Below are positions 5,716 to 36,017 of a DNA stretch of 64,000 nucleotides, one piece after another. Both the position numbers and the translations under genes were made by a program. Below the pieces are notes generated by a model. The model was not told the origin of the DNA. It worked only from the letters and a program-made list of their open reading frames with translations, and searched no databases. Every line of letters begins with the position of its first letter. Position 1 is the stretch's first letter. The stretch lies in assembly GCA_040384485.1 (NCBI GenBank), contig JAZKJH010000002.1:231951-295950 (forward strand). The letters run 5' to 3'. The DNA comes from Patescibacteria group bacterium. Its GTDB lineage: Bacteria > Patescibacteriota > Minisyncoccia > Phycocordibacterales > DATDWN01.

Positions 5716-5769
5716 AATCCACGTTACTCATAATAATATATTGTGACGGTCAAACCTACAAAAAGTTAC

Positions 5770-5805
5770 AAAAAAAAGCACCACTACCCTTACGAGTAAT
5801 GGTGC
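5770..5805 (-). terminator. rho-independent terminator of 5811..6314
   Basis: GCACCACTAC...GTAATGGTGC with a T-run on the minus strand. Confidence 0.55.
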
Positions 5806-5810
5806 ACGGT

Positions 5811-6314
5811 TTAGGACTTCTGCAATTTCCTGAGAACTTTTGTACGTAGGTCCAGGACCACTTCAGTTTTTGCTACGAGGTATCCAAGGAGGGCTCCGTA
5901 GCACATCTGAGCAAGAACAGTCTCCTCGGCAAACGAGAATCCGAAGACAGAAATAACAGCAAACACTGTCACGATGCCTAGCCGGCGGAGTGCGCTAGCA
6001 AATGACAGAAAGTCTTTGTCTGTCACAACATACAACGGAGCATCTTTGAGTTTGGATCTCAGCAGAACTGCACAAACTCCGATGGTTACTGTTATTGCTC
6101 CAGGATATGGACTCATCTTGAAACCAGCTACAGATGATGCGACTACCCATGAGGAGATGAACAAACACCCCATCATGAATAGTAAATTCAACACGGCACC
6201 AAAATATCGTCTGACTTCCTTTATGTCAGTTTCTTTCCTGAAATTTTCTCTCGCAGTGTTCACTGTATCAACGAAATCGTCGACTACCTGACTTGCCATT
6301 GCAGCTCTGTCCAT
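5811..6314 (-). CDS. hypothetical multi-pass membrane protein
   Basis: Several hydrophobic helices. GGAGG ribosome-binding site 8 nt upstream. P4 and a TTGACAATTACAC promoter lie upstream. G+C-richer than the surrounding window. Confidence 0.6.
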   Translation of the reverse strand: MDRAAMASQVVDDFVDTVNTARENFRKETDIKEVRRYFGAVLNLLFMMGCLFISSWVVASSVAGFKMSPYPGAITVTIGVCAVLLRSKLKDAPLYVVTDKDFLSFASALRRLGIVTVFAVISVFGFSFAEETVLAQMCYGALLGYLVAKTEVVLDLRTKVLRKLQKS

Positions 6315-6372
6315 TTCTGAACCTCCGTCATAAGATTACAATTCCTAGTGTAATTGTCAAACTTCTAAAAAA

Positions 6373-6397
6373 CTCACATAGGACTGCCCTATGTGAG
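6373..6397. promoter_or_regulatory. palindrome P4: CTCACATAGG-ACTGC-CCTATGTGAG
   Basis: Perfect 10-bp arms. On the minus strand it is followed by TTTTTT and then TTGACAATTAC. It could double as the terminator of 6418..6969. Confidence 0.55.
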
Positions 6398-6417
6398 TTT
6401 TGTTTTTAAAAACCTAA

Positions 6418-6969
6418 CTAGTTGAGTTGAACTGAAGAAAAGTTTTCAGTAGACATCATCTGCAAAAGATCGTTCCCTTGCAAATAGCTGAGATACCTCA
6501 ACCAGTCGGTTGTGTTGCGTCCCATACGAAGGAGAACTCTCTTCTCGTCCTTGGTACGAAACGATCCAAGAGAAGACCGGTCAAAGAAAGCCATGCAAAT
6601 CTCTACTTTCTTTCGAACGATCTCCGCTTGTCTTTTGTTAAAGTCGAAAGTTGCACCGGAACGGCGCAAAATCCCCTCATACACCAGCAAGTTGTTGGCG
6701 ACAAGCTCACACTGCTGGATTTCGGATCGGTTCAGTTTGGTTTTCGGCTTTTTCAATAGCTCATTCGAGTTGTCCGCCATAACCCACGGCGAACCAAAAC
6801 GACCATCATAAGAAAACAAAGCTGTTTCGAGCAGCCGTTCGGTAAAGTACTCCACCTCTTCGTTCGAGATGTTGTGGGTTCGCCCTTGTCCCGGAGAAAC
6901 GAGCTCTCGCAAGTTCCTGCGCAGGCACACCCTGGCCAGTTCCCTGTCGTATCCAACAACAAGTCTCAT
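6418..6969 (-). CDS. hypothetical protein
   Basis: 183-aa ORF. G+C-richer than the surrounding window. No recognisable domain. Confidence 0.5.
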   Translation of the reverse strand: MRLVVGYDRELARVCLRRNLRELVSPGQGRTHNISNEEVEYFTERLLETALFSYDGRFGSPWVMADNSNELLKKPKTKLNRSEIQQCELVANNLLVYEGILRRSGATFDFNKRQAEIVRKKVEICMAFFDRSSLGSFRTKDEKRVLLRMGRNTTDWLRYLSYLQGNDLLQMMSTENFSSVQLN

Positions 6970-7024
6970 TTGACCTCCATGTTCTAGTATCTATTTTACA
7001 CAAACTAAAACAAAAAGCACCAAG

Positions 7025-7744
7025 CTATTTTCCTAGATAATAATTCAAAGTATAAATCCAATCTTCATCGTCGCCCTCACCACTGTCTCTCTGAGCCACT
7101 TTTTGATTTAGCAACCACTCTAAATACCCTCTGTCATTTTTTGCAACATCCTCTAGTTTTTTATCTTTATGTTTCCCAAAATTAAATTTTACATAAAGAG
7201 ACGGAGTGCTAGATATCTCTATCATTTTTTCCAATGCCTTTTCCTCACTGCCTTCTGTTTCAACTACTTTTGCTAGCAACCGTCCAAACACCGCTTCAAG
7301 CACAAGCACATCACCTTCAGCATCGTGGGCGTTTCCAGACACCTCTAGATCCAAGTAGTAACGCAAGAACTGCAAATTGTATTCTGGTATTACGGCTTCT
7401 TTGTCCAAAGCTCTCGCAACACGCAATGTACAAATGTATTTGGGTACCGACATTCCCTCAGATTTCAGCATAGTTATATCAAACAAAGCATTGTGAGCTA
7501 TCAGGACACCGATGTTCAACAACTCCTGCAAATCCTTTTTCATTTCACTTCCTTCGAAAGGCTTTTTGCCCTCCAACATTCTGTTGGTGATATGAGTAAT
7601 GCTCATAGACTTTACGGTCATAGGTACTGGTGGTTTGAAGTACTCTGTACGCACGACATCATCCACTTTGTAACAAATCTGGCACAGTCTATCCTTTTGC
7701 ATCTCGTTTCCTGTTGTCTCTGTATCTAGAAAAATTTTTTTCAT
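7025..7744 (-). CDS. DnaQ-like 3'-5' exonuclease (DEDDh) with a C-terminal DUF3820-like tail
   Basis: Exo I-III motifs: FLDTETTG, AHNALFDITML and HDAEGD. C-terminal FGKHKDKKLEDV...GYLEWL. Confidence 0.8.
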   Translation of the reverse strand: MKKIFLDTETTGNEMQKDRLCQICYKVDDVVRTEYFKPPVPMTVKSMSITHITNRMLEGKKPFEGSEMKKDLQELLNIGVLIAHNALFDITMLKSEGMSVPKYICTLRVARALDKEAVIPEYNLQFLRYYLDLEVSGNAHDAEGDVLVLEAVFGRLLAKVVETEGSEEKALEKMIEISSTPSLYVKFNFGKHKDKKLEDVAKNDRGYLEWLLNQKVAQRDSGEGDDEDWIYTLNYYLGK

Positions 7745-7750
7745 TTTTAT

Positions 7751-8401
7751 TTATTGGACCTGTCGTGGTGAGGGCACAAACTTACTAATCATTTCTTCAA
7801 AAACTTTTGTTATTTCGGAACCTGGTACATATGGCCACTGTGCAAAAATTATAATGCGTTGTAAGTCATAAAAGTGAACATACACTAGAGTCCTACCAGA
7901 GGAACCTCCTGACTCATCTGACACCGCACGAATCATTCGATATCCATTTATTATTACTTCTTCGCTAGGGGTTATTGGGTCGCCTTCAACCATCGGATCA
8001 TCCTTGTAGCCTTGTTTTATCAGCCACTCATCCTCGGTCGTAACCCCAGCTATATCCGTGATGTTTGTAACAGCCACGGAAAAGTTTGGTCCCACTGCAT
8101 TCCACTCAGTTGCTTGTGGAATAATTAAGTCTTCGTTTTTAGTAAATAAAACACCTGGTGAGGCATCATCGTTATAAATGTACCAACCTGAGGCGACTTC
8201 AACTGTATTGGTTACATTGTTTTTTGTGAAAACAAATTTATTGAATTTTGGAGCAACTACCGGTTCATTTACCGGCTCTTGCACTTGCTCCTCTACAACT
8301 TCTGGAATAACTGCAACTGTTTCCTTTGCATTTTCATAATAAAACAAAAACCCTCCCATAGCGACCACAATAATGCCCAAGGCTACGTATATTTTAATCA
8401 T
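7751..8401 (-). CDS. hypothetical secreted or membrane-anchored protein
   Basis: N-terminal TM segment (IYVALGIIVVAMGGFLFYY). Confidence 0.55.
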   Translation of the reverse strand: MIKIYVALGIIVVAMGGFLFYYENAKETVAVIPEVVEEQVQEPVNEPVVAPKFNKFVFTKNNVTNTVEVASGWYIYNDDASPGVLFTKNEDLIIPQATEWNAVGPNFSVAVTNITDIAGVTTEDEWLIKQGYKDDPMVEGDPITPSEEVIINGYRMIRAVSDESGGSSGRTLVYVHFYDLQRIIIFAQWPYVPGSEITKVFEEMISKFVPSPRQVQ

Positions 8402-8428
8402 AGTTTTTTAATTATAACTAAAATATAC

Positions 8429-8460
8429 AAAAAAATCCCCGCCTATAAAAGCGCGGGGAT
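8429..8460 (-). terminator. rho-independent terminator of 8472..9038
   Basis: ATCCCCGC-CTATAAAA-GCGGGGAT preceded by an A-run, which is a T-run on the minus strand. Confidence 0.6.
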
Positions 8461-8471
8461 TGTATCTTTAC

Positions 8472-9038
8472 TCAGATTGCGATAGCCCGACGAGCATCCT
8501 CAAGAGTGGTGACCCCATACAGGTCGAAATCAGCCTTCCCCATGCCGTCCTTTTTACCACCGTCACTGTATGGAACATATAGCCTGCCATCAGGAACAAA
8601 AATAGTTTTGAGAAGGTCTGGGTAGACAAGAGTATCACTCTTTTTATACCCAGTAATCTCGAAAATCAAATCTTCGAGAATCCGATCAAGGTCCTCCTTG
8701 GTTCCAGTATGGACAGGTCGATACGCCTCTTTGCTGCCCGCAAAAGTAAGTGTTGGGATTGGATTTAAAACAACCTTATCCCACACATTGATTTTTCCTG
8801 ACTCAAGCAGCTTGGCATGAGTTGCCTCAGCCTGTCGAGCAGAGTCTCCTCTGCAAACAGCAGTGACATCATTGTTGGTTTTGTAGTAAAACAGCAACTT
8901 AGCTGCCTTGAGTTTGCTAATTGCGAGTGCCAACTTCTTTGCATCCAGGTTATCTGACCACCAGATAAAGAGTGCACATAACCCAACGGCCGCGATAACT
9001 CCTAACAAAAGCGAAGTAAAATAGTCCACTACTGCCAC
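8472..9038 (-). CDS. hypothetical membrane-anchored protein
   Basis: N-terminal TM segment. ORF of 188 aa. Confidence 0.55.
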   Translation of the reverse strand: MAVVDYFTSLLLGVIAAVGLCALFIWWSDNLDAKKLALAISKLKAAKLLFYYKTNNDVTAVCRGDSARQAEATHAKLLESGKINVWDKVVLNPIPTLTFAGSKEAYRPVHTGTKEDLDRILEDLIFEITGYKKSDTLVYPDLLKTIFVPDGRLYVPYSDGGKKDGMGKADFDLYGVTTLEDARRAIAI

Positions 9039-9142
9039 CTATCCAACTCCTACAATCAGTACTGCAAAACACAGGCGATGAGAGTTGATCTGGTAACTAG
9101 AATACAATTTTTAAGTCTTACTGTCAACATACTGTCTCGAAC

Positions 9143-10504
9143 TTACATTCCAACGATAACCGCTCGAGTTATCGAACCCACGTAACCAACTGAAGGTGAA
9201 ATAGATTTAGCTATTTGAAATTTAATGACAGCTGCTCGGGTGGCCGGACCAAAATAGGTTGTTTCATTCCCTACTGAACCTGACCCAGTTGTCGCAATAA
9301 CGAAACCTTTGCTGTTTAGAAACTTTTGCAATAGACGAACATCTTCACCAGTCATACCAAGTGACAGATTTCTTGTTAGATTTAAACTACTAGCTCCTGT
9401 TGAAGTCGGTGTTGGAGTCATCGGACTTGGTGTCGGAATAGTTACTGAGGCAGTGACAACAGCTCGCGTGGCTGGACCGTAATATCCATCGGCAGGAAAT
9501 ATTCGCATTGCTGTTTGATATTCAATCAAAGCAGTTTGAGTAAGTGTACCAAAATACCCTGTCGCGCCTGCTACCGCCAAACGTTTTGCTTCTGCACCTA
9601 CTGACTTTGCAATAAGGTGAAGTTGGAGAGCAGTCACTTCAGCACCTCGTGAACCGAGAGTTAAATCCCCAGTTGGAACTGTTGGTGTAGGAGTGGTGGT
9701 AGTAGGAGGTATTACTGTTGTTCCAGGAATAAAGTTCAAAGTGCTGGTGATTATAGTTGGAAGAGTGATATTTTGTGATATCGCTGAGTTAAATGTACTT
9801 CTGAAATTTATAACTAGGAGTTTCGACAAAGCATCGGCGTCGGACGTTTGAGTTAGAATCTTCGAAAGAAAAGAAATTTTCTCTGCAATCGTGAACTCTT
9901 TTGTAAGTCTCGGAAATGGATCTATGTGGTTTCTGTCGCCAGTAAATATTTCAAAGTGCAAGTGAGCAGCACCACCAGAAGCATTACCTGTGTTTCCTAC
10001 ATAACCAATAAGCGAACCTGTTTCCAAAACAGTTCCTTCGGTCACCCCTTCACCTATTTTATCTAAATGCATGTAAACAAAAGTCTCACCGCCTGGGTTG
10101 GCAGTGTACACATATAGTCCTTCGGTAGTCCCTGTGCCAGTTCTTAAAACGACTGCTGGAGTTGGCGAAACAATAGGTGTTCCTTTTACAGCCATAATAT
10201 CCTGGCCTTCGTGAAGTCTTCCTCCAGAACGTGGGTCACCAAAGTTTGGTGACATATTGCTTCTCGCAACACCGAACAAAATTGGTATTGGTACTTCAGA
10301 TACTATACTTGCAGGTAAATTACTAATTTTCTGTTGTAACTCACTCGAGTCTCTTCTCCAAGTACGGATTCTTTCATAATAGTCAGTGGTTGATTCATTT
10401 GAGCCGGTGATTTGGGAAGTTGTCGCGGTCTGTGCAGAGGAAATAATTGGAATAATTAAAAAAACAGCCATAAATAAGGCTCCGAACATATAATTTTTTT
10501 TCAT
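9143..10504 (-). CDS. M23 family metallopeptidase with two C-terminal peptidoglycan-binding (PG_binding_1-like) domains
   Basis: Signal peptide. HEGQDI...HLHFEI M23 motifs. Two LxxGxxGxxVxxLQxxL...YFGxxTxxAVxxFQ repeats. Confidence 0.85.
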   Translation of the reverse strand: MKKNYMFGALFMAVFLIIPIISSAQTATTSQITGSNESTTDYYERIRTWRRDSSELQQKISNLPASIVSEVPIPILFGVARSNMSPNFGDPRSGGRLHEGQDIMAVKGTPIVSPTPAVVLRTGTGTTEGLYVYTANPGGETFVYMHLDKIGEGVTEGTVLETGSLIGYVGNTGNASGGAAHLHFEIFTGDRNHIDPFPRLTKEFTIAEKISFLSKILTQTSDADALSKLLVINFRSTFNSAISQNITLPTIITSTLNFIPGTTVIPPTTTTPTPTVPTGDLTLGSRGAEVTALQLHLIAKSVGAEAKRLAVAGATGYFGTLTQTALIEYQTAMRIFPADGYYGPATRAVVTASVTIPTPSPMTPTPTSTGASSLNLTRNLSLGMTGEDVRLLQKFLNSKGFVIATTGSGSVGNETTYFGPATRAAVIKFQIAKSISPSVGYVGSITRAVIVGM

Positions 10505-21050: not shown

Positions 21051-21090
21051 CAGCCAAACCAGGTTTTTAAGCAAAAAAAACCGGTAACCC

Positions 21091-21927
21091 CTAGAAGGGA
21101 TTACCGGCGATCTGCGTGTTGTACTTTTTCATGAGCCGTTTGCTCATCTGATGAATCGACAGTACCCGAATGCTGGGACGTCCAAGCATCGGCTTGTATA
21201 AAACCTGCTTTTGAACGTGCTTGTCCTTCTCAATCTCCACCCACACCCGGATTTTGTCCTTGCGTGTGTACGGAGTGAGAGCATAGATGAACCAAAACCT
21301 CTCACGCTTCTCGAGAAGTGTGTTTGTGTTCACCAGTCGGACGTTCTCCGGGAGAAGGTGTCCGAGGTCCGCAGACTTCAAGAACTGCTTCAACTGACGC
21401 TCATGCTCAGCTCGAAGACCGAACCTGTCGCGACTGACCTCCCGACTCTTCTGCATGTAGCACAGAGTCATCGTTTCCGGATGAACATAAGGCCCCGAGA
21501 CAACTCGACTCACCGTTCCGAATTGAGAGACAGAGTAAATTTTTCCATCGTCACCGATGAAGCAATTCTTCTCGACCATCCCATCAAAATCCTTGATGAG
21601 TGTGAGGTCTGTCATCGCCCGGTGGTCAAACTGGTTTCGGAACTCCGAGTTAACCTTGTTCCAGGGCTCTCCAACTCGTGAGCGTAGAAACCGATGAAGG
21701 GGTGCGTATCGAATTCCGATACACTTTTTCCCTTCGTAGTCCGTGTCGATGCCTTTGGCAAAAATCGTCATTTTAGCCCGTGTTGGACCAAAGTCGCGAT
21801 CCTCCAAGTCTTCCAAGGTAGCGGAGGAAACTGCTCGAGTATCCAATTTCAAGGCCGTCCCACGATTCCGTCGGTGCGAACCGCCACGAGCCACATCTCT
21901 CACCACATCTCGCATGTCTGGGCGCAT
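21091..21927 (-). CDS. hypothetical protein
   Basis: 278-aa ORF. G+C-richer than the surrounding window. No recognisable domain. Confidence 0.5.
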   Translation of the reverse strand: MRPDMRDVVRDVARGGSHRRNRGTALKLDTRAVSSATLEDLEDRDFGPTRAKMTIFAKGIDTDYEGKKCIGIRYAPLHRFLRSRVGEPWNKVNSEFRNQFDHRAMTDLTLIKDFDGMVEKNCFIGDDGKIYSVSQFGTVSRVVSGPYVHPETMTLCYMQKSREVSRDRFGLRAEHERQLKQFLKSADLGHLLPENVRLVNTNTLLEKRERFWFIYALTPYTRKDKIRVWVEIEKDKHVQKQVLYKPMLGRPSIRVLSIHQMSKRLMKKYNTQIAGNPF

Positions 21928-21988: not shown

Positions 21989-23281
21989 TTACACACTGAT
22001 ATGCCAATCTTCTACTTCGTTGTGCAACAATGGCAATAGATTCTCTTTTTTTACAATAACAGTATCCAATATTTTTTCCATCCATTCCTTAGCATTTGTT
22101 GCGTCTATTTTATTAGAACTAACTTTCGTTGAATCAAATAGACCATTAAAACCGTCCAGAAAAGAATCCGCCAATGCTTCCCTCTTTCCAGTATTTAGAC
22201 CTGCATCCTTTCCAGCCCTAATCAAAAGACGTAAACCGTAGCACATGTCTCTCATATCTTTTAGATAACTTCTAGGCACACCGCTATATTTTTTTGTTTT
22301 TTCTTTATCAACATCATCCTGCCATGGACCCATAGTGCCCACATCTGCTATCTCAGCTGCCAAAGTAACGTTGGCTGAATGCATGTAACCGTGGTCATAA
22401 CCTAAGTTAAAAAAGGTTGCCATGTTTTGTCCCATACGTTTAAAAAATTCCTGGAAAAATACTGGTTCCTCCTCCGGATTACCGATCGATATTTCTGGTA
22501 GGTCTAAATTCTTGTCGCGTGTTTCCTGATTAAAAACATCAAAAGCTTGTTTAAACAGTTCCTCTCTGCGTTCTCCGGACTGAGCAGCCTCAGCAATACG
22601 GTTGTTCATTTTAAACAACCTTACAACTTCGTATGGTTTATAGTCTTTTTTTGGAGAAATAACTTTTCGGTCTCTTAGCTCATCAACAGTCAACATCTGC
22701 CCTTTAAATGGAAGACGTTTTAACTCTGCCATTCCCCAATAAAGCTCAGTTCTTAATCCTGCACACATTAGATATTCTGAGTTCTCAAGCAGCGCCCCTC
22801 CTTCTGCTTCTTCTTTTGAAATTAAACCAAGGACTTTGTATCCCCGATCATTTACACCTTCTTTATCTTTGACAGCCCAGGAGTCATAATCTTCTATATT
22901 TAAATCTTTTGCAGTTGGTTTTAGATAACCAATACCTTTTGTACTAACTGCATAAAAATATTCTGTATATACTCTCCCTTGGTGGTCTTCTACCTCAATA
23001 CTACTTCTTACTCCGCTATCATTGATTGATCTCCAGTGAGGAGCCTCAACCATTTTTGTTTCTGTGCCTGTACTAGGACTAATAAACACGATAAAATCTC
23101 TAAAATCATGTGAGGATGTTATCCTGTCATTTTCTTCAACTGCCTCATAGTCTGTACCCTCCTCAAGTCGAACAAATTTCTCAGGCTTTGATTCTATCCC
23201 TTCTATTTCTCTACCAGAAAAGTTGTCTAAATCTACTAGTGTTGGTCTAACTTCTACTTCTATTTGTGGTTGTTTTTCCAT
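21989..23281 (-). CDS. hypothetical protein with a protein-kinase-like (APH/ChoK-type) catalytic-loop signature
   Basis: HGYMHSANVTL aligns with the HGDLHPGNV Brenner motif, but Tyr sits in the Asp position. A DVG (DFG-like) follows 10 residues later. The gene starts 10 bp after the stop of giant gene A. Confidence 0.55.
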   Translation of the reverse strand: MEKQPQIEVEVRPTLVDLDNFSGREIEGIESKPEKFVRLEEGTDYEAVEENDRITSSHDFRDFIVFISPSTGTETKMVEAPHWRSINDSGVRSSIEVEDHQGRVYTEYFYAVSTKGIGYLKPTAKDLNIEDYDSWAVKDKEGVNDRGYKVLGLISKEEAEGGALLENSEYLMCAGLRTELYWGMAELKRLPFKGQMLTVDELRDRKVISPKKDYKPYEVVRLFKMNNRIAEAAQSGERREELFKQAFDVFNQETRDKNLDLPEISIGNPEEEPVFFQEFFKRMGQNMATFFNLGYDHGYMHSANVTLAAEIADVGTMGPWQDDVDKEKTKKYSGVPRSYLKDMRDMCYGLRLLIRAGKDAGLNTGKREALADSFLDGFNGLFDSTKVSSNKIDATNAKEWMEKILDTVIVKKENLLPLLHNEVEDWHISV

Positions 23282-23290
23282 ATATTTTTA

Positions 23291-26200
23291 TTATTCCCAA
23301 TTACCATACCATTTTTCGTTACCGTCAGCATCGATTTCCCAGATCACAACTGGAGCGGTAGCGCTGTCGGTACTGTGTATGTTGTAATTGTTAAAATTTG
23401 TCTCACGTTTATCTTTTAAACCTATTTTTTTACATTTTAAAAACCTTTTTCTATATGAATCACTGACTGACTGCCGGTTGGTGGAAGCCATCCCGCGGGA
23501 GTCCATAGGTATTGCAACTTGTTGACACAGCATTTCCTTCGGAAGACTAGGGTCAGCTTTAATTCTTTCTTCTCTTAGTCGCTTCGCAGTCTCGATAGCC
23601 TCTTTCAGAACACCCTTCACAAAAGTATCGGCATTAACACTTTGAATAAAGTTTTCTGCTGGGTTGTTGGCACGTACAACAAGCACTGGCGTACCGGAAG
23701 ACCTGTTTGCTTGAATAGCCAACACAGAACCTCGTAGCTCTTCGTTTTGCTTACCTCTATTTGTTACATACACCCAAGTCCTAAGGCCTGGATACAGTCC
23801 TTTGGCCATGCTTTCATGTTGCGATGTATGACAAGAGTCCCCTAAATCCCCTGAGTAAATATTCAGTACCCCCGACACTGGCACCATCGATACCGCGACC
23901 TCTTTTTGAGTTTTTCCAGAGTAAACCCCCAAGATCTTGTCTAGTTTGTTTTTTAAAACTGTTATTGGCAAATGACCTGTTTGTTTATCGAGCTGTTGTT
24001 GCCAAGCGAGAGTAAGTTTTTCAAGTAACTCAGGAGAGAAACTCACATGGGATGTATGTTCTGGATCTTGTAAATGGTGAAGATAATGCTCCTCTATATA
24101 ATCTCGCGCAATCTTATGCACTCTGTAGACCATATCTGGGTTTGGAGACCGTCCTTCTTCAGAATCTACTAAACTATCGATCTCATCTCTTGAACCCTCA
24201 TCCATCACAATGCCATACATATGTAAGGCCGAAAAATCTCGTATTTCTTGTACTAAAGGAAGTTTTGCATCGAGTTTGTTCAGTTCTTCCAATACAGCAA
24301 CATAATCCTGGTCTTCCTGACTAGAATTATGAAGTTTTTTATCCAAATTTTTAATCTGCTCAGATGCATCTCTCAAGATATCTGCTTGGCGCTCGATTCC
24401 TTGTCTGCCTTTTGGGCTCTTAAGGGCTTTTAGTTTTTTAGACAGATTTTGTTTCTTTACAGAATCTTCCTCGTCCTCAATCATACTTTCTATATCTTCT
24501 AGTGAACTAGAAAGAAGCTGTCTAATACTGTTTTCCTCCGAAGCTAGCTTGCTCAATAAAGTGTTAAAGAACTGAAATGTTCCATTGCTTGAAGCAAAAT
24601 CGAGAGACTCCATAAGTGGCCCGCAAACATTTTTTAACTCTTGACTGGACATTAGCTCTTCCAAAGCTTTTTCTTGGTCAGGTGTTTTTTCTGATCCACG
24701 ACTCACAACAGAAACCTTGAAGCTTGATTCTTTAAAGCCTACAGGTAACTGAGCCACCTCTGGTTTATTTGTAATTGTTTTCTCCCATGTTGATACAATG
24801 TCTGATAATGCGTGATCTCTCTCAAATTGAGTGGAACCCTTTATCACACTAAACAACTCATCCCCTAATTCAGTTTTAAGTCCATCTGGAATAGTGTCCG
24901 CCAAAAGACTAGTTTTAATCCTTTTTAGGCCTTTGACTAATTCGTTAAACAATTCCAAAGAACTGTTGAACTTCCAAGATCCATCTTTGTTTTTTGCCTT
25001 AACTCCAAACTCTTCACATATACTTATGGTATCAGGACCGATTCTGTCCAGAGTTTTACTCCTATGACAGTCGGCATATACCTTAAACAGTCTCGGCAAG
25101 TTGCTCATTCCCATGGACTCAACAAAACTGACCACCAGCTCCGCATCCTCTGCTTTCTCTATAGAAACTATCTTATGGTCCACCAAATACTTCATTAGTG
25201 GTTTCAACTCTTGTTCCCAAGGATCGTTGGTGACATTAGCAGCGATAGCCTGGATTTTTTGCATTCTAGAAAAAGCATTGACCCACGGGTTGCGTGAAAT
25301 TATCTTGTGTAATTCATTAGCGATTTCGCTTTCTTTGGAAACTTCTTCCGTAAACTTTAGAACAGTGACCACTTTTTTGGGATCACTATACAAATGACTA
25401 TTCATCCAAGTTGAGATACTTTCAGGGTTGAATACTTTACCTGCAGCTTTCTCCCCGCCCATTTTTTCCAACACTAAATAGAAAAGAGTTTTATTTCCAT
25501 GTTTAATCGCTGTGACCAAAATATCTGTTGCGATCCCACTTATAAATTTAGGATCTGGTATTATCTCTTCAAGCTTGAATGCACCTGCTGGGTTCTGACC
25601 GGTGTCGATCAAAGATCTGACTGCATGGCTGGCTATGCGTTTTAATTCCTCTGAACTAAACTCTATTTGCTTGCCGGTTATTTTTTGAATTTTTGCTATT
25701 CGCTCTATGGTTTCGTTAAGACCATAAGCATCAAATGTTGTAAGATATCGAATAGCATAATTCCTAATCGGTATCTCATGTAATGCCCAGTCAATCTTTA
25801 CTTGAGTCAGCTCTTGTATAAGCTTGATAGAATCAGCGTTGCCTCGAAAAAGTCTCTGTACGTAAATGTCTTCAATTACTAGTCCGGTGAATTTCGGCTT
25901 AACTTTCGTTATAGTCTCCCATTCAGAAATATTAGCCTTCGCCCTCTCATATGTAGACTGATTATTAATTGTTGAAACTATAACATTGTATTGCTCCTGA
26001 ACCAGCCCTTCATTATTAGTAAAATCTGGTTCTATGCCTGTCATTTGATATCCGGCAGTGATAAGTTGCTTCATGTCTCTGTAGTTGTTTACAATCCAGG
26101 TTCTATAAGCCAATTGCATTCTTTTCGAATCAATTGTAGGTCGAATATTTGTGATTTTGTAAATTATTTCAGCTTTTTTTAAGCCTCTTGTTCCGTAGTA

Positions 26201-27715
26201 AGTGTCAGTTTCATATGCAGTAGCATTCAGAATGATTTCTGCATACATTTTTTGCACTTCTTTCTCCATTGATTTAAAATCTGGCTCCACACCTGTCAGC
26301 TGAACTAATGTTGGAACGTAATCCTCGGCATACTGAGATGGGTTTGTGAAAGCATCTAAATATTTATTTCTAACCTCCTCTGGGCTTATTTTAAACTTAA
26401 TGCCTGTTAATGAGCAAAGTTTTTTCATCGCCCGGAGTGTTTCCGGATAATATGACGAATACCCAAGTAGGTTTTCTTTATACTTATTTTGCAAGTGTAT
26501 ATCGTACGACTGGTAATCAGGTTTTATGCCTGTTAGTTCTTGCAAAAATGAAAATACTGGTTTTAGATCATCTTCATCATCGGATTTGTGGCAGGATTCT
26601 AGAGCCAAATTCCAGTATGCATACCTTATTAATCCTGGAAACCTTCCACTTTGATTATGTTCTTCTAGTAATTTATTTATTTCTTCCACTCGACGTTTGC
26701 AATCAGGAAGATTAGTACTGTCTGAATAAATAAAAAAATCTGAGAATTCCTTAATACTGTTTTTAAGTTCAATATCAAGAAATCTAAGTTCGTGTATCTC
26801 ATCAACCCCCTTCGGGTCAAGTGGGTCAGGAATACGCATGGGCTCTCTAGAGTATTGCTTTACACTTGAAACAATATAATCGATTGCATCATTAAACTTC
26901 TTTATCTCATTTTCCTCAGTTGTTTTTACCCTGATATTAACAAGTGCTTGAAGAATCGATTCTGCATCAAATATCCTAAGATTCTTAGGGTTTCCACCAG
27001 CCAAATTATAATCTGTTGTCATCTCTATATCAAAAATCTTCTTTAATTTTTCGATATCGTTCACATCGCCGATACGTCCCACTGGTCTATAGATATAGCT
27101 CTTAGTAGATCTATCTTCACTGTTTGCGACAGACTTATGCGCATAAAAATCTAGAACTAACTTCTTGTTTTTGGGTGTAGCCACGAGTTCTACTAACTGG
27201 GAATACCTAAATATTGTAGAGCTATGAGTTACTGGTTGATCCAAATAATCCAAAACATACAAAAGGACTTTAGATCCCTCCTTTCTAAGTTCATTACGTA
27301 ATCTTATAGTTTTTTGTAATGGAGTTTCTTCTATTTGTGGTTCAACCTCAACCTTATGTTCTGGCTGATTTTCCACCTGAGGTACGACTTTAACTTTATC
27401 GTCTTCCAGATTTTCTCCCTCATGTTGCGGATTTAGTTGCTCAAAAGGAACACCATTGTTTTCCTCGTTGTTATCATTGTCATCATCATAGGGAGGATCG
27501 TAGTCATAAAAGTCATCGTCATAATCGTCCTCATCATGGTCTGCTATATAAGGGTCATCCCACACACCCAAACGAACACACTCTTCCACTAGAGCTCTCA
27601 TGCGCTCCATGTCCTCTGGAGAAAGCTTGGCCTCTATTTGTTCCTCTGGTGACTTTCTCAAAGTCTCAACAGCTTCTGCAAGTGATTCCAGGCCCTTAAA
27701 AACCTTTCTTTCCAT
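23291..27715 (-). CDS. giant (1474-aa) cytoplasmic repeat protein A, paralogue of 27801..32000
   Basis: No signal peptide. N-terminal HEAT/PBS-lyase-like repeats (DRSTKSYIYRPVGRIGD). An acidic DDDDFYDYD block. About eight ~45-aa modules around (L/I)TGI(K/E)PD(F/Y). A conserved C-terminal domain with YSGDLGDSCHTSQHESMA. Confidence 0.8.
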   Translation of the reverse strand: MERKVFKGLESLAEAVETLRKSPEEQIEAKLSPEDMERMRALVEECVRLGVWDDPYIADHDEDDYDDDFYDYDPPYDDDNDNNEENNGVPFEQLNPQHEGENLEDDKVKVVPQVENQPEHKVEVEPQIEETPLQKTIRLRNELRKEGSKVLLYVLDYLDQPVTHSSTIFRYSQLVELVATPKNKKLVLDFYAHKSVANSEDRSTKSYIYRPVGRIGDVNDIEKLKKIFDIEMTTDYNLAGGNPKNLRIFDAESILQALVNIRVKTTEENEIKKFNDAIDYIVSSVKQYSREPMRIPDPLDPKGVDEIHELRFLDIELKNSIKEFSDFFIYSDSTNLPDCKRRVEEINKLLEEHNQSGRFPGLIRYAYWNLALESCHKSDDEDDLKPVFSFLQELTGIKPDYQSYDIHLQNKYKENLLGYSSYYPETLRAMKKLCSLTGIKFKISPEEVRNKYLDAFTNPSQYAEDYVPTLVQLTGVEPDFKSMEKEVQKMYAEIILNATAYETDTYYGTRGLKKAEIIYKITNIRPTIDSKRMQLAYRTWIVNNYRDMKQLITAGYQMTGIEPDFTNNEGLVQEQYNVIVSTINNQSTYERAKANISEWETITKVKPKFTGLVIEDIYVQRLFRGNADSIKLIQELTQVKIDWALHEIPIRNYAIRYLTTFDAYGLNETIERIAKIQKITGKQIEFSSEELKRIASHAVRSLIDTGQNPAGAFKLEEIIPDPKFISGIATDILVTAIKHGNKTLFYLVLEKMGGEKAAGKVFNPESISTWMNSHLYSDPKKVVTVLKFTEEVSKESEIANELHKIISRNPWVNAFSRMQKIQAIAANVTNDPWEQELKPLMKYLVDHKIVSIEKAEDAELVVSFVESMGMSNLPRLFKVYADCHRSKTLDRIGPDTISICEEFGVKAKNKDGSWKFNSSLELFNELVKGLKRIKTSLLADTIPDGLKTELGDELFSVIKGSTQFERDHALSDIVSTWEKTITNKPEVAQLPVGFKESSFKVSVVSRGSEKTPDQEKALEELMSSQELKNVCGPLMESLDFASSNGTFQFFNTLLSKLASEENSIRQLLSSSLEDIESMIEDEEDSVKKQNLSKKLKALKSPKGRQGIERQADILRDASEQIKNLDKKLHNSSQEDQDYVAVLEELNKLDAKLPLVQEIRDFSALHMYGIVMDEGSRDEIDSLVDSEEGRSPNPDMVYRVHKIARDYIEEHYLHHLQDPEHTSHVSFSPELLEKLTLAWQQQLDKQTGHLPITVLKNKLDKILGVYSGKTQKEVAVSMVPVSGVLNIYSGDLGDSCHTSQHESMAKGLYPGLRTWVYVTNRGKQNEELRGSVLAIQANRSSGTPVLVVRANNPAENFIQSVNADTFVKGVLKEAIETAKRLREERIKADPSLPKEMLCQQVAIPMDSRGMASTNRQSVSDSYRKRFLKCKKIGLKDKRETNFNNYNIHSTDSATAPVVIWEIDADGNEKWYGNWE

Positions 27716-27716
27716 T

Positions 27717-27790
27717 TTGGGTGAATTTAGAATTAATACTTATATTTTAAGATAGTTAGGGTTAAATTACAAACTGTGTCTAGCTTAAAA
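27717..27790 (-). promoter_or_regulatory. promoter of giant gene A: TTGTAA-17-TAAAAT, duplicated at 32003..32075
   Basis: CCTAACTATCTTAAAATATAaGTATTAATTCTAAATT is near-identical upstream of both giant genes. Confidence 0.5.
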
Positions 27791-27800
27791 ATAGTCGGTA

Positions 27801-30800
27801 TTACTCCCAATTACCGTGCCATGTTTCCTTCCCGTCTGCATCTATTTCCCAGATCACCACTGTGGCAGTACCGCTACGTAAACTATGAACATCATATCCA
27901 TTAAAGTTTGTCTCTCTAGTACTCTCTAACTCAACCTTTTTACACTCCTTGAATCTTTTTCTGTACACATCATTTACTGGTTGGCGGTTGGTAGATGCCA
28001 TACCTCGTGAGTCCATTGGAATTGTTACTTTTTGACAAAGAAGATGGTTGGGTAGGCTTGGGTTAGATTTGATTCTCTCTGCTCTCAAACGTTTTGCTGT
28101 TTCGACTGCTTGTTTCAACACATCTACCACAAGAGACTCTGATTCAACACTTTGAATAAAGTTTTCTGAAGGATTGTTTGCTCTTACAATAAGGACCGGC
28201 GAACCATCTGGTTCTGTCGCTTGGATAGATAACACCGAACCCTTTAACTCCTCATTCTGCTTACCTCTGTTTGTTACATAGACCCAGGTCCGGAGGTTAG
28301 GATATGACCCGTTCGCCATTGATTCATGCTGATGAGTATGACAAGAGTCACCCAAGTCCCCTGAGTAAATGTGAAGTAGACCAGAAACAGGAACTAGAGA
28401 AACAGAAATCTCCTTTTTAGTTTTTCCAGCATATACTCCTAAAATCTTGTCTATTTTGTTTTTCAAAACAGTGATAGGCAAATGCCCAGTTTGTTTATCA
28501 AGCTGCTGTTGCCACACAAGAGTTAGTTTTTCTAAAAGCTCTGGAGAAAAAGTTTGGTGATTTGTGTGTTCACTGTCCTGCAGGTGATGCAAATAATGCT
28601 CCTCTATATAGTCTCTGGCAATTTTATGTAGCTTATATATATTTTCCGGACTTGGTGATACACCTTCATCAGAATCTACCATGTCAGTCACAGCTACTCT
28701 TTGTGCCCCCTGCATAACCACATCAAACATATGCAATGCAGAAAAATCTCTTATCTCTTTAGTTAAAGGAATTTTTTTATCAAGCTGATTTAATGCTTCT
28801 AGAACGTCCGTGTAGTCCGAATCCTGTGAATGACCTTCATCAAACTTATCCTGCACCTTTACTACCTGATCTACAGAGTCCCGCAAAATATCTGCCTGAT
28901 TCTCTATTCCCAATCTGCCTTTAGGATTTTGTAAGGCTTTAAATTTCTTCGTTAAATTTTGTTTTGATTTTGGATCCTCCTCTTTTTCTATCATGCTCTC
29001 CATTTCTTCTCTGGAGCAGGAAAGAAGTCTTCTAAGAGACGTCTCCTCTTCTTTGAGTTTGGCCACCAAATCAGTGAAAAAATTATAAACTCCTTTTGTA
29101 GCTCCGAACTCGATAGATTTTGCCAGTGGCACGTAAGAATCCACCACTTCCTGACTACTCATTAGTTTTTCTAACTCCACCTCCTGATCCGCAGTTTTTT
29201 CTATTTTGTGACTTAATGCGGGAACTTTAAAAGTAGCTTCCTGGAAACCAGAGGGTAATTTTGCCACTTCTGGATACGCTTCTGCAGTGTTATTCCATAT
29301 ATCAAGAAGCACTGGTAAACTATGACTCCTTTCAAATTGGGTTGAACCTTTTATACGACTAAACAGTTCCTCCCCTAACTCAGTAGTAAGAGCTCCCGGA
29401 ACTTTATCTTCCAGCAAGCCAGTCTGAATACCTTTGAGAATTTTACTTAACTCATTGAACAGCTCCAAAGAACTTTTAAATCTCCAGGATCCGTCTTTGT
29501 TTTTTGTCTTAATGTCACAACCTTCACACACACTGATTGTGAATGCACCTAATTTATCTAAAGTTTTGTTTCTATGACAATCAGCATAAACCTCAAAGAT
29601 TTTGCTCAAATTCTTCATGCCCATAAGCTCAATAAAAGATACCACCAATTCAGCATCTGCAGGATTCTCCATAGAAATTATTCTTTCACCCACAATAAAC
29701 TTCATAAAAGGTTTGAATTCTTTTGTCCATGGGTCATTGGTTACATTTTTTGCCACGGCTTGAACTTTTTCGAGCCTTGTAAAAGCTGACATCCATGGGG
29801 TATGGGAAATTTCTTTATAAATAGAAAATGCTAACTCACTCTTATCAGAATGCTCTTGTAAAAACTTTAGGATAGTAAAACTTTTTCCTGGATCTTCGTG
29901 GAGATTACGGATAGCAATCTCTGACATGCTTTTAATATTAAAATCTACTTTTCTTCCTTTAAGTTGCTTGATTGCCTCCCCAAAAAGGTGGCTGTCGGCA
30001 TATTGAATAGCATGCACCAAAATATTTTCAATAACAGAATTGATAGCCTCCTGATCAGAGAAAATTTCTTGGAATCTAAGGGTGCCGAGTGGGGACATGC
30101 CGTATTCTCGTAAACGTCTTCTATTTGTCGAAATGATTCCAACCATTTCATCCTGTGTAAAATTTATCTTTAATCCCGTTATCTCTTGGACTTGCTTCAC
30201 ACTATCAATAACCTTGTCAAAATCGTATGGGTCATAAACAGTAAGAACATCGAGGCATTTACTCTTTATTTCTTTCTCCCGAGAAGTCCAGCCAATGTCG
30301 ACCCCTGTTAGTGTTTGCAAGGCCATTATTGTCTCGGCCGACCCTCTAAAAAGGTTACGCACATAAATTTCACCTATTATTTTTTCATTGTACTGAGGCT
30401 TAATTTTACAAATTTTCTCCAAATTCTCAATTTGTTTCATTGCCGCAGACAATGAGTCGACACTAATGACTCCTGAAAGGATTCGGCTATATTTATTTTG
30501 GACGTGAGCCTCCGATTTAGAAAAGTCTGGCTCTATTCCAGTAAGCTCATAACCTTTGGTAATTAGGTCAACTACATCTCCTGTACCGTCAAAGAGCCAA
30601 GTTTGGTAACAAAGTTGCATTTGAGAATCCTTAATTTTTGGACGGATTTTTGTTTTTTCATACATCAATTCTGCACATTTAAATCCTGTAGCACCCCAAT
30701 AATCATCGGACTCATAACTGCTGGAATTCATAATTATGCGATCGTAAGATTGCTGAATCTCGGGTTCTAACTTATTAAAGTCGATTTTGCTTTCTGTTAC

Positions 30801-32000
30801 ACTCTCGAGTATTTCCAAATAATCATTTGGATACTTGTGCAGGTTAGCCAAAACATATATATACTTTTCTTTTATGAAATTCGGATCTACCTCGAACTTG
30901 ATTTTAGTTATTGAATACAATTTTTCAATGCACATAAGGTTGTAGTCCTCCACCTCATCACCCGGAAAAAAGTTTTCATCATACATGCCTTGTACCTCAC
31001 TCTTACGAGAAGTGTAGTCCGGTTTCAAGTTGGTAATTGTTTCTAAAAAAGCTATTTGTTCAAAGTATTCGTCACCACGGGAGACACGTTCCGTCATTTT
31101 CCAATAAGCATTTTGTATTAGTTCTGGAAGTAAATCCTCTGCTTTCTCCTCTGCAAGTGCTTTTTTCAAGTTTGTAAAATTAGAAACAGTTCGGGTATTG
31201 TCTATGGCCTGAGACTCAAAATAGCGATTAAACTCTCTAATTAGTTCTGAAGTATTAGGATGGAAAAACTCTGAGCGGAATTCAATATCGGCTTCATGAG
31301 GATCATTTGCATGAGGAGTATAAACTTGGCCTATCTCTCCATTGATATAGTTGATAGCATTATTTATTCTTTCTATATCATGCTCATTCTTTGTGCGCGC
31401 TCGAATATCCACTAAGGCCCGAATAACCAAATCACCATCTAAGGATTTGTAATACTCCTTATCGTATTGCTGGTAGTTCGTAGTGAGAGTAATGTCAAAA
31501 TATTTTTTCAAACCTTCAACATGATCGGCACTACCAATACGGCCCATAATTTCATGAATATATGATTTAGTTGATCTGTCTGGAATAGCAGCAACATCTT
31601 TTTTGCTATAAAACTCAAGAATTTCATCAGCATTTTCTTCTGATGCAGCATACTTCAAAATTTTTGAGTATTTATAGACCTTAAGGTTGTTTACCTCCGG
31701 TCCATCCATGTATTGCAAAATAAGAGGAACTATTTTTCCCCTTTCATCCCTAATCTGCCTACGCAGTTTTACTATTTCTTCATTTCTAGCATCCTGGTCT
31801 TCTTTACGTTTATGACTTAATCCTCGAGTGCTATATACCGAATCCCATACACCTTTTTCCATGCATTCTTCCAAAAGAGCTTCCATACGCTCCATTTCCT
31901 CCGGAGAAAGCTTGGCCTCTATTTGTTCCTCTGGTGACTTTCTCAAAGTCTCAACAGCTTCTGCAAGTGATTCCAGGCCCTTAAAAACCTTTCTTTCCAT
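27801..32000 (-). CDS. giant (1399-aa) cytoplasmic repeat protein B, paralogue of 23291..27715
   Basis: The first 33 aa are identical to A, and the nucleotides at 31900..32003 are essentially identical to 27611..27716. It has the same module series and the same C-terminal domain (YSGDLGDSCHTHQHESMA). Confidence 0.8.
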   Translation of the reverse strand: MERKVFKGLESLAEAVETLRKSPEEQIEAKLSPEEMERMEALLEECMEKGVWDSVYSTRGLSHKRKEDQDARNEEIVKLRRQIRDERGKIVPLILQYMDGPEVNNLKVYKYSKILKYAASEENADEILEFYSKKDVAAIPDRSTKSYIHEIMGRIGSADHVEGLKKYFDITLTTNYQQYDKEYYKSLDGDLVIRALVDIRARTKNEHDIERINNAINYINGEIGQVYTPHANDPHEADIEFRSEFFHPNTSELIREFNRYFESQAIDNTRTVSNFTNLKKALAEEKAEDLLPELIQNAYWKMTERVSRGDEYFEQIAFLETITNLKPDYTSRKSEVQGMYDENFFPGDEVEDYNLMCIEKLYSITKIKFEVDPNFIKEKYIYVLANLHKYPNDYLEILESVTESKIDFNKLEPEIQQSYDRIIMNSSSYESDDYWGATGFKCAELMYEKTKIRPKIKDSQMQLCYQTWLFDGTGDVVDLITKGYELTGIEPDFSKSEAHVQNKYSRILSGVISVDSLSAAMKQIENLEKICKIKPQYNEKIIGEIYVRNLFRGSAETIMALQTLTGVDIGWTSREKEIKSKCLDVLTVYDPYDFDKVIDSVKQVQEITGLKINFTQDEMVGIISTNRRRLREYGMSPLGTLRFQEIFSDQEAINSVIENILVHAIQYADSHLFGEAIKQLKGRKVDFNIKSMSEIAIRNLHEDPGKSFTILKFLQEHSDKSELAFSIYKEISHTPWMSAFTRLEKVQAVAKNVTNDPWTKEFKPFMKFIVGERIISMENPADAELVVSFIELMGMKNLSKIFEVYADCHRNKTLDKLGAFTISVCEGCDIKTKNKDGSWRFKSSLELFNELSKILKGIQTGLLEDKVPGALTTELGEELFSRIKGSTQFERSHSLPVLLDIWNNTAEAYPEVAKLPSGFQEATFKVPALSHKIEKTADQEVELEKLMSSQEVVDSYVPLAKSIEFGATKGVYNFFTDLVAKLKEEETSLRRLLSCSREEMESMIEKEEDPKSKQNLTKKFKALQNPKGRLGIENQADILRDSVDQVVKVQDKFDEGHSQDSDYTDVLEALNQLDKKIPLTKEIRDFSALHMFDVVMQGAQRVAVTDMVDSDEGVSPSPENIYKLHKIARDYIEEHYLHHLQDSEHTNHQTFSPELLEKLTLVWQQQLDKQTGHLPITVLKNKIDKILGVYAGKTKKEISVSLVPVSGLLHIYSGDLGDSCHTHQHESMANGSYPNLRTWVYVTNRGKQNEELKGSVLSIQATEPDGSPVLIVRANNPSENFIQSVESESLVVDVLKQAVETAKRLRAERIKSNPSLPNHLLCQKVTIPMDSRGMASTNRQPVNDVYRKRFKECKKVELESTRETNFNGYDVHSLRSGTATVVIWEIDADGKETWHGNWE

Positions 32001-32002
32001 TT

Positions 32003-32075
32003 TTAGTAAATTTAGAATTAATACCTATATTTTAAGATAGTTAGGTTTAATTTACAAACGACTTACAATTTGGGA
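32003..32075 (-). promoter_or_regulatory. promoter of giant gene B, a duplicate of the gene A promoter
   Basis: TTGTAA-17-TAAAAT with the same flanks as 27717..27790. Confidence 0.5.
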
Positions 32076-32089
32076 ATTTTTGATATATA

Positions 32090-32131
32090 AGAAAAGCCCG
32101 ACCCGATGACGTGTTGTCATCGGCTCGGGCT
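32090..32131 (-). terminator. rho-independent terminator of 32141..32908
   Basis: AGCCCGACCCGATGAC-GTGTT-GTCATCGGCTCGGGCT with a TTTTCTT run on the minus strand. Confidence 0.55.
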
Positions 32132-32140
32132 CGTGTGTGT

Positions 32141-32908
32141 CTAAATGAACAGTTCACTCAGAGGACGGAAGTCCTCGTGAGGTGAGAGAGTCGTCCGTTC
32201 ATGTCCATGGTAGAGATATGCATTTCGGCGTGTATTGGAACTGAGTACTCTGTACTCATCCCCAATCACCTGCAAGGCACAATCGTCATCCACTGAAATG
32301 ACCGGCATAAGGAAACCCTTCTGCTCACTCAGGTAGTCCAGCTCATTTCTCCTCCAATCCTCGGAGTTGTGATGAGGTGAGTGATAGAACGGGAGCAATC
32401 CAAGACCTTTGACCCAGATGGGTTTCCAGTTCTTGATGCCAATGAACTTGTTGGAATCGCTCAGTCCAGCTTCAAACCAGCAGATGGATCCTGCGCTAAG
32501 TCCCATCATCACTTTTCCTTGAGCATGAGCAGAGCGAAGCAAGTTTGAGACTCCTGTTTCGTTCCAGATGTTCATCATCTCGCGGGTGTTACCTCCGCCT
32601 ACGTAGATGATGTCTGCCCACGCGATCTTGGAACTGATCTCCTTGAAGTAGACCTTGTCCTGCGCGAGGAGCAAATGCTCGTAGTTACATCCCAACCGAA
32701 GATGAAACTGGGTGTAGATGTTATGGCAGTATGCCATATCATCCAAGCTTGCGGTTGGCAGAAACAGTACATTGACTGTATCCCGCCCAACCGGCAACTC
32801 TGACGCAGCCAGTCGAACTGCTTCTTGGTCTATCGAAAGTGTGGTCGGTGGAGCACACTGGGTACGCACCGAGCCCCCTCCGATTGCAATTATCTTGGTT
32901 TTCGCCAC
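32141..32908 (-). CDS. S51 peptidase (peptidase E / cyanophycinase-like)
   Basis: IYVGGGNT and GLSAGS (GxSxG nucleophile) motifs. Markedly G+C-richer than the surrounding window. Confidence 0.7.
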   Translation of the reverse strand: MAKTKIIAIGGGSVRTQCAPPTTLSIDQEAVRLAASELPVGRDTVNVLFLPTASLDDMAYCHNIYTQFHLRLGCNYEHLLLAQDKVYFKEISSKIAWADIIYVGGGNTREMMNIWNETGVSNLLRSAHAQGKVMMGLSAGSICWFEAGLSDSNKFIGIKNWKPIWVKGLGLLPFYHSPHHNSEDWRRNELDYLSEQKGFLMPVISVDDDCALQVIGDEYRVLSSNTRRNAYLYHGHERTTLSPHEDFRPLSELFI

Positions 32909-33049
32909 ATCTGCTCCTTTCCGAGCAATATCTTGCGTTAAATTAACTATTCTATCTCCTTCCTTAATTATAGCATAATATATACCATACTGTCAATAGT
33001 TACATATAGGGCAAGGTAGAGCCGTATATGAAGAAAATGGCTAATTTCT

Positions 33050-35519: not shown

Positions 35520-36017
35520 TTATAACACTTCTTGAATATATTTAGGAACCATATCTAAAGCCAGATATTTTTCTTTTAGTTTTTTTGGAAGTTTTTTGAA
35601 CTGACCCACAATTCCCCTACAACTTGAACTACCGCATTTACACTTCATTGTCCAAGAGTCGTCAGAAGCTATAATGGTAGAATAATCGAAAACTATTTCC
35701 TCCCCCTTTTTAACCTCAGAGACAGTAACAGCAAAAAGTTTATCCCCTATTTTTACAATCCTTGTATTTGGTTCACACGAGTGGTTCATATAGTTAGAAG
35801 GATAACCTTCAGGACTTATATACAGTTCATCATCATAGCGAATAGTGTTGGCTCTGGTTGTTTCATCAATATCCTCATCTTCATAACAAGTAACAAGCTT
35901 CCCTCTTATCTGAAAAATTCTTGTTCCTAACTTGAATCCCTTGGTCGCAAAAAGCCCATTTCCGTTTTTAGCTTTTTTAACTTCCACCCCTTTTCGTACC
36001 TTAATTTTCATTATCAT
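35520..36017 (-). CDS. SET-domain protein (putative protein-lysine methyltransferase) with a post-SET Cys cluster
   Basis: NHSCEPN, GEEIVFDY and CKCGSSSCRG motifs. Confidence 0.8.
   Translation of the reverse strand: MIMKIKVRKGVEVKKAKNGNGLFATKGFKLGTRIFQIRGKLVTCYEDEDIDETTRANTIRYDDELYISPEGYPSNYMNHSCEPNTRIVKIGDKLFAVTVSEVKKGEEIVFDYSTIIASDDSWTMKCKCGSSSCRGIVGQFKKLPKKLKEKYLALDMVPKYIQEVL

Follow-up and report, generated by a model that had tools for sequence, protein, structure and literature searches.

GNAT (acyl-coenzyme A N-acyltransferase) and kinase folds occur together in bifunctional enzymes such as AAC(6')-Ie/APH(2'')-Ia, which are small, modify antibiotics and carry canonical motifs. Of the kinase-fold proteins first taken for 'pseudokinases' and then found to catalyse another reaction, SelO-type enzymes are the best known: K113, R176 and R183 of SelO hold the gamma-phosphate of a flipped ATP, and N253 and D262 are the Mg-binding Asn and the DFG-type Asp of the P. 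syringae protein (reviewed in PMC8097203). A shifted catalytic Asp, found beside the conserved Asn in the sequence NTDN, is a further SelO feature (reviewed in PMC12409994). Here we describe a locus of a Patescibacteria group bacterium (assembly GCA_040384485.1, contig JAZKJH010000002.1), lying within a stretch of 64,000 nucleotides (nt), called the window throughout, in which a gene for a SelO-like protein of 430 amino acids (aa) follows two tandem genes encoding the giant proteins A (1474 aa) and B (1399 aa), both ending in a GNAT-like domain. Like AAC(6')-Ie/APH(2'')-Ia, this type of module brings GNAT-fold and kinase-fold domains together in one polypeptide or operon, but it differs in order, size, motifs and scaffold, and has no resistance context.

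The three open reading frames (ORFs) had been recognized in a first reading of the window, hereafter the original prediction; strand and sizes are as given there, and the distance from the stop codon of A to the start codon (ATG) of the 430-aa gene, put at 10 bp, is 9 nt (TAAAAATAT). No signal peptide, transmembrane segment or hydrophobic segment was found in A, B or the 430-aa protein, in agreement with the claim that the giants are not secreted. Since signal peptide and transmembrane segment are both missing, a role as surface adhesin or S-layer protein was rejected. Scans of the three proteins against Pfam, NCBIfam and PADLOC gave nothing above the curated cut-offs, and phmmer and profile searches against Protein Data Bank (PDB) sequences returned only noise, with no convincing match. 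The statement that no characterised family can be recognized thus stands for curated sequence families, none of whose thresholds is reached, and does not for the folds, which are recognizable as GNAT and as the SelO branch of the kinases; homology to characterised proteins was found at the level of the fold only, not of the family.

Fold and conserved residues of the SelO-like protein

A profile search collected 44 homologues of the 430-aa protein, nearly all 400-490 aa long (three are shorter fragments) and none containing a Pfam domain. The AlphaFold2 model, built on 41 homologues with a mean predicted local distance difference test (pLDDT) score of 92.5, has a protein-kinase-like fold closest to SelO, which is also the best structural match; the gene had been labelled 'kinase-like' at the outset, and aptly so. 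By its predicted fold, the placement of the protein in the SelO branch of the kinase superfamily is well supported. The only hint at the sequence level is a match of about 13 bits between residues 269-333 and NCBIfam YdiU/SelO. The curated models are far from being reached (YdiU, 12.9 bits against a cut-off of 431; SelO, 12.3 against 900; no Pfam match), and a profile of 41 SelO-like members retrieved no PDB sequence even at E<=10.

Alignment by hhalign pairs the loop GYDHGYMHSANVTLAAEIADVGT (residues 296-316) with the catalytic loop of E. coli SelO, with N304 and D313 aligned to N247 and D256, and on this basis the two residues correspond to the Mg-binding Asn and to the DFG Asp of SelO. Two further correspondences were drawn by eye: K115 lies in a K-G-x-G motif, similar to the LKGAG of E. 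coli SelO, and R221 and R228 are spaced seven residues apart, as are R170 and R177 of the E. coli protein. All five residues (K115, R221, R228, N304 and D313) are invariant in 41/41 sequences, as is H301. In comparison with SelO/YdiU (Pfam UPF0061; PDB 6eac), the SelO-like proteins share a loop of the form H-G-x-(M/L)-x-x-x-N ... D-x-G with its Mg-binding Asn and Asp, and appear to share the K-G-x-G following the beta3 Lys and the paired Arg (R..S..R in SelO). As the residues expected to hold Mg are kept, and those expected to hold a flipped ATP appear to be, the protein would most likely transfer a nucleoside monophosphate (NMP), not a phosphate.

The differences are equally clear. Identity to SelO is only 16%; the loop reads HSAN where SelO has NTDN, with an invariant His two residues earlier; there is no C-terminal Cys or Sec; the length is 430 aa against about 480; and, unlike that of SelO, the SelO-like gene is tied in the genome to a giant partner. 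Judged by its sequence, including the residue at the place of the shifted catalytic Asp, the protein is not a member of the SelO family.

The giants and their GNAT-like end

A and B have 49% identity across 1344 aa, and 86% over the N-terminal 56 aa. An NCBI entry titled 'MAG: hypothetical protein, Patescibacteria group bacterium' (MAG, metagenome-assembled genome) has exactly the sequence of protein A. The motifs YSGDLGDSCHT(S/H)QHESMA and VVIWEIDADG..GNWE, the latter terminal, are common to both, as originally predicted. The conserved C-terminal part does exist, but it is larger than the domain of about 330 aa first proposed, being made up of a C-domain of ~290 aa and, before it, a helical M-domain of ~220 aa and a coiled region. 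The series of about eight repeat modules was likewise found: in A there are eight of them at residues 394-686, each about 34-48 aa long and with (L/I)T(G)I(K/E)P(D)(F/Y) at its centre, B has the same repeat region in a more degenerate form, and the repeats of the giant of a related locus (L003) align with the repeat region of A. An acidic DD/YD block, which had been assigned to each giant, is present in A (residues about 57-130) and in the proteins P0002 and P0003, not in B. The proposed N-terminal HEAT/PBS-lyase repeats could not be substantiated, as these models had no Pfam match in the giants even at E<=1; the only weak repeat-like match of the N-terminal region is to a PPR protein (E 0.018).

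An exhaustive HMMER search, using as query the last ~1190 residues of four giants, defined a family that, clustered at 50% identity, numbers 535 clusters with a threshold of E<=1e-3, or 170 with E<=1e-30. A word-indexed search had found three giants, then one when a 9-sequence profile was used, missing even the paralogue in the same window; these small counts reflect a limit of the tool and are no evidence of rarity. Members are mostly 1000-2500 aa long, and their similarity is concentrated in the final ~660 positions. The giants A and B appear to be almost entirely alpha-helical, more than 1000 residues of each being poorly conserved helical repeats and coiled segments. Among 21 distinct loci with a strong match to the C-domain hidden Markov model (HMM), 20 also match that of the M-domain, the exceptions given being the contig-truncated L021 and L027.

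For the C-domain, a structure was predicted from residues 1183-1474 of A and a 75-row alignment. The model (pLDDT 93.5) features four helices, followed by the order b1-a1-a2-b2-b3-b4-a3-b5-a4-b6-b7 (b, strand; a, helix), so that the GNAT core topology, b1 to b6, is complete. The best Foldseek matches, weak as they are (best E-value 0.011), are largely GNAT-fold proteins. On the evidence of the model, the attribution of the C-domain to a very divergent form of the GNAT fold is well supported.

In an alignment of up to 136 sequences, 25-76% identical to the C-domain of A, invariant or near-invariant positions are H1210, C1295, G1329, R1348, N1350, N1351, P1352, N1413, R1414, N1442 and Y1444. The Cys, Arg, Pro and Arg of this signature are invariant in 136/136 members; its two Asn and the Tyr have no exception in the subset of 75 sequences, and in the larger set their conservation is 90% or higher. 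The R-A-N-N-P stretch forms the b4-a3 loop, which is the place of the coenzyme A (CoA)-binding motif in GNATs, N-R precedes a4, and the Cys opens a2, on the acceptor side; placement was taken from the order of secondary structure elements, not from distances in three dimensions. In the model, Cys1295, Arg1348-x-Asn-Asn-Pro1352, Asn1413-Arg1414 and Tyr1444 would thus sit at the positions that form the cofactor/acceptor cleft of GNATs. The complete order of strands and helices is shared with the superfamily, and the conserved residues are located at the b4-a3 loop, at the N-terminus of a4 and at a1-a2, the sites of CoA and acceptor binding in GNATs. In contrast, identity to it is only 5-15%, no sequence model matches, R-A-N-N-P-x takes the place of motif A, an invariant Cys starts a2, and the domain is preceded by a four-helix extension and closes proteins of 1000-2500 aa.

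GNAT toxins (TacT2, AtaT, KacT and GmvT) are among the structural matches, and the tightly coupled two-gene architecture could recall a toxin-antitoxin or anti-phage defence system, in which the C-domain would act like the tRNA-acetylating TacT, AtaT and KacT under the control of the SelO-like protein. Such a function appears highly improbable. No PADLOC model matches, the GNAT domain lies inside very large proteins and is not a toxin of ~170 aa paired with a small antitoxin, its neighbour being instead a 430-aa kinase-fold protein, and the family, with its hundreds of clusters, is broadly conserved. Moreover, the loci sit among housekeeping genes (rpsB-tsf, aminoacyl-tRNA synthetases, ABC-F), not in defence islands.

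Linkage, fusion and possible chemistry of the pair

Genomic contexts of SelO-like genes were gathered from exact-protein look-ups (nine) and from a scan of species-representative genomes (20); removal of duplicates and addition of this window gave 27 distinct loci, in which the C- and M-domain HMMs were run over all ORFs. The named sources are all Patescibacteria MAGs (Yanofsky-, Sung-, Nomura-, Lipton- and Paceibacterota), some third-party annotation titles being labelled otherwise. In 23 of the 27 loci a C-domain protein adjoins the SelO-like gene, although the match is weak in L014 and L020. The giant usually lies directly upstream on the same strand, separated by the 9 nt seen here or overlapping by 4 nt (L009); it is convergent in L008 and L027, and downstream in L025. 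This window is the only one with two giants in tandem, other loci having one.

In two loci a single ORF encodes both C-domain and SelO-like domain: L028 (2107 aa, 2946-9266) and L030 (1757 aa, 3948-9218); a third fusion is the database protein P0135 (2265 aa). The junction in L028 (...EIDNDGTETWH-(21 aa)-LDSNSGREIEGI...) contains neither a stop codon nor an ambiguous base. Absence of synteny in relatives, which had been named as a possible outcome unfavourable to the original prediction, is clearly not the case, and functional coupling of giant and SelO-like protein is well supported.

Taken with the folds and the conserved residues, linkage and fusions suggest a physically coupled pair, in which a giant scaffold with a GNAT-like transferase end is served by a dedicated SelO-like nucleotidyl-transferase modifying the scaffold or a bound substrate; we hold this explanation with about even confidence. 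The giant would be cytoplasmic, its variable N-terminal repeat region acting as the scaffold, and would form a complex with the SelO-like protein. With ATP as donor, the latter would nucleotidylate either the giant, in its C-terminal region, or a substrate held there. The transferase activity of the GNAT-like domain, possibly an acyl transfer, would be switched by this modification or would cooperate with it.

Several observations weigh against this explanation. Four SelO-like loci have no giant within the flank, and the distant giants L031 and L032 have no SelO-like gene within 8 kb. Similarly, among 19 metagenome loci of the distant clade, a SelO-like gene is nearby in only 2 of the ~13 that have enough downstream sequence. 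Most of the sampled distant giants lack an adjacent SelO-like gene; in a large part of the family, therefore, the giant works with no partner beside it. On the side of the C-domain, Foldseek gave no match at E<=1e-3; GNAT sequence families (Acetyltransf_1 and related) had no Pfam match for A, B or 22 C-domains at E<=0.1, nor did a PDB sequence search with the C-domain find any GNAT; and motif A (Q/RxxGxG/A), which binds CoA, is not in the b4-a3 loop, which reads R1348-A-N-N-P-x. On the side of the SelO-like protein, the shifted catalytic Asp is replaced in every member, position 303 being Ala in 30, Ser in 10 and Thr in one of the 41 sequences, and never Asp; SelO-style protein O-AMPylation is therefore not assured.

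The absence of both hallmark catalytic motifs, the CoA P-loop and the shifted Asp of SelO, is what would be expected if the giants were mainly structural or scaffolding proteins, their GNAT-like end a non-catalytic module that binds a ligand or a protein (a pseudoenzyme) and the SelO-like protein a pseudokinase-type regulator or adaptor devoid of transferase activity. The long, poorly conserved helical repeats and coiled segments of the giants fit this picture, and so does the finding that helical or designed repeat proteins account for all of their weak PDB sequence matches. We nevertheless find a purely structural role distinctly doubtful, given the invariant Lys, Arg, Arg, Asn, Asp nucleotide/Mg set of the SelO-like protein, and the cluster of polar residues kept at canonical GNAT cleft positions in 136 sequences as diverged as those described above, which argues for ligand chemistry rather than shape alone.

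A different chemistry might also be considered. The SelO-like protein might adenylate a carboxylate, for instance in amino acids, small acids or proteins, as NIS synthetases and SidJ do on kinase-like folds; the acyl group would then pass to Cys1295 as a thioester, or straight to an amine in the GNAT cleft, and an amide bond would be formed without CoA or tRNA, the product being trimmed or recycled by neighbouring exopeptidases. The loss of the Asp beside the conserved Asn would be tolerated here, since the formation of an acyl-adenylate should need no base for an acceptor hydroxyl; a GNAT-like domain without the CoA motif, yet with an invariant Cys and two invariant Arg, would be in keeping with such a reaction, and the GNAT-fold condensation domains FeeM and Ebony C-domain are indeed among the structural matches. 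Fusion of two parts is typical of consecutive steps, and the SelO-like protein has some similarity to NIS synthetases. Exopeptidase genes, finally, are recurrent neighbours: an S51 peptidase gene is adjacent in 5 of the 27 loci and an M42/M20-like one in 3 (together 7/27), lying between or beside giant and SelO-like gene in L001 (12364-14095), L002 (6337-7350), L006 (9246-9986), L012 (2424-3206), L020 (7233-7919) and L025 (9217-10107).

We still regard a coupled ligase of this kind as unlikely. The invariant residues of the C-domain are also kept in many giants that lack a SelO-like gene beside them, which is unexpected if the C-domain depends on an adenylate made by the SelO-like protein; carrier, substrate and product are none of them identifiable; the peptidase neighbours are all confined to the closer clade, S51 being recurrent but not universal; and the resemblance to SelO is much stronger than that to NIS synthetases (IucA/IucC, AcsD, SbnC), whose IucA_IucC sequence domain and multi-domain architecture of ~550-600 aa are missing from the SelO-like protein. 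The more speculative version, according to which the pair would represent an unknown kind of ATP-dependent ligase, forming a carboxylate adenylate from flipped ATP and condensing it independently of CoA through the invariant Cys, with the giant as scaffold and either a peptide-like product trimmed by S51/M42 enzymes or a protein modification as the outcome, we judge quite unlikely.

Layout of the locus and implications

The features of the locus are collected in Table 1.

Table 1. Position of genes, protein domains and transcription signals at the giant/SelO-like locus (numbering of the window)
Feature	Position	Strand	Remarks
Giant protein B	27801..32000	-	Conserved N-terminus (56 aa), then helical repeats, M-domain, coiled region and GNAT-like C-domain
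Giant protein A	23291..27715	-	Paralogue of B with extra acidic insert
SelO-like protein-kinase-fold protein, 430 aa	21989..23281	-	
SelO-like protein, residues 296-316: predicted loop for catalysis and Mg binding	22334..22396	-	GYDHGYMHSANVTLAAEIADVGT
C-domain of A, residues 1183-1474	23294..24169	-	Four helices, then predicted GNAT-fold core
C-domain of B, GNAT-like	27804..28679	-	76% identical to that of A; C-domain HMM E=2e-144
M-domain of A, about residues 786-1003	24707..25360	-	Motifs NDPW and DAExxVSFVExxGMxNLP; conserved throughout the family alignment
M-domain of B	29214..29870	-	M-domain HMM E=3e-99
Eight helical repeat modules of A, about 34-48 aa	25616..26602	-	LTGIKPDY-type; regular expression and spacing analysis
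Acidic Asp/Glu/Tyr-rich insert of A, residues 57-130	27326..27547	-	28 D or E in 74 residues; B without it
Promoter-like hexamers upstream of A	27744..27772	-	TTGTAA-17-TAAAAT
Promoter-like hexamers upstream of B	32029..32057	-	TTGTAA-17-TAAAAT
Intrinsic-terminator hairpin and U-run	32087..32132	-	Between S51 peptidase gene and giant B
Terminator-like hairpin	21080..21108	-	13-bp stem and T8, 3' of the 278-aa gene
Peptidase S51 (PepE/cyanophycinase family) gene	32141..32908	-	Upstream of B; Pfam PF03575 at 4e-40
278-aa basic protein	21091..21927	-	pI (isoelectric point) 9.9; no known family

The hairpin located 3' of the S51 gene has a folding energy of -31.4 kcal/mol (z = -8.4) and is followed by UUUUCUU; it was missed by a simple terminator scan. 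Because this strong terminator separates the S51 gene from giant B, the peptidase was excluded as a member of the operon. Terminators and duplicated promoter-like hexamers together make B-A-SelO-like-278aa the likely transcription unit, with S51 separate, and the hairpin beyond the 278-aa gene probably ends it. A and B share a near-identical DNA tract, at 27600-27775 and 31885-32060 on the minus strand, which starts ~60 nt before the ATG, takes in the hexamers and covers the first ~115 nt of the gene; the remainder is ~50-60% identical, rising to 67-76% in the C-domain. From this comparison, the 5' tract looks like the product of recent gene conversion, or else a strongly constrained regulatory and N-terminal element.

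The 278-aa protein has no Pfam, NCBIfam or PADLOC match and no homologue in any other related locus, and was discarded as a part of the module. A 360-aa neighbour of the SelO-like gene in L007 was similarly discarded as a candidate reduced giant, for want of any similarity. An rpsB-tsf pair lies beside the distant giant of L031 (pair at 6594-7943), and another within 9 kb of the giant-less SelO-like gene of L007 (pair at 130-1401), which may be a coincidence or the remnant of a shared synteny. Upstream of the S51 gene of the window, a perfect 12/12 sigma-70 consensus (TTGACA-18-TATAAT with extended TG) is found at 32967-32996(-). Elsewhere, the window encodes a 165-aa SET-domain protein (35520-36017, minus strand) and a 429-aa protein with an ice-binding-like and a peptidoglycan-binding domain (54732-56021, minus strand); G+C content is 49% at 60001-62000, against 35-44% in the remainder, and an Rfam search over the whole window found no RNA gene.

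Both folds, GNAT and SelO-type kinase, are already known. What is new is a SelO-like family with an HSAN loop, a GNAT-like family with an R-A-N-N-P/Cys signature that ends giant proteins, and the conserved pairing and fusion of the two; in the literature on Patescibacteria and SelO, and on large proteins of the Candidate Phyla Radiation (CPR) and GNAT, we found no paper describing either family or their pairing. The SelO-like family adds a new branch, altered in its loop, to the SelO-type enzymes, and its genetically tied, sometimes fused partner is a testable candidate substrate or co-enzyme, a kind of information that is usually missing for these enzymes. The GNAT-fold end, with its invariant Cys/Arg/Asn-Asn-Pro/Arg/Tyr signature, suggests a defined construct for such work, namely residues about 770-1474 of A together with the 430-aa protein. 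The giants themselves, all 535 clusters of them, are entirely unannotated, and all named sources found here are MAGs of Patescibacteria (CPR), mostly uncultured bacteria with small genomes. For genomes of that size, devoting 4-6 kb to one gene pair, or about 10 kb in the duplicated form of this window, is a large investment.

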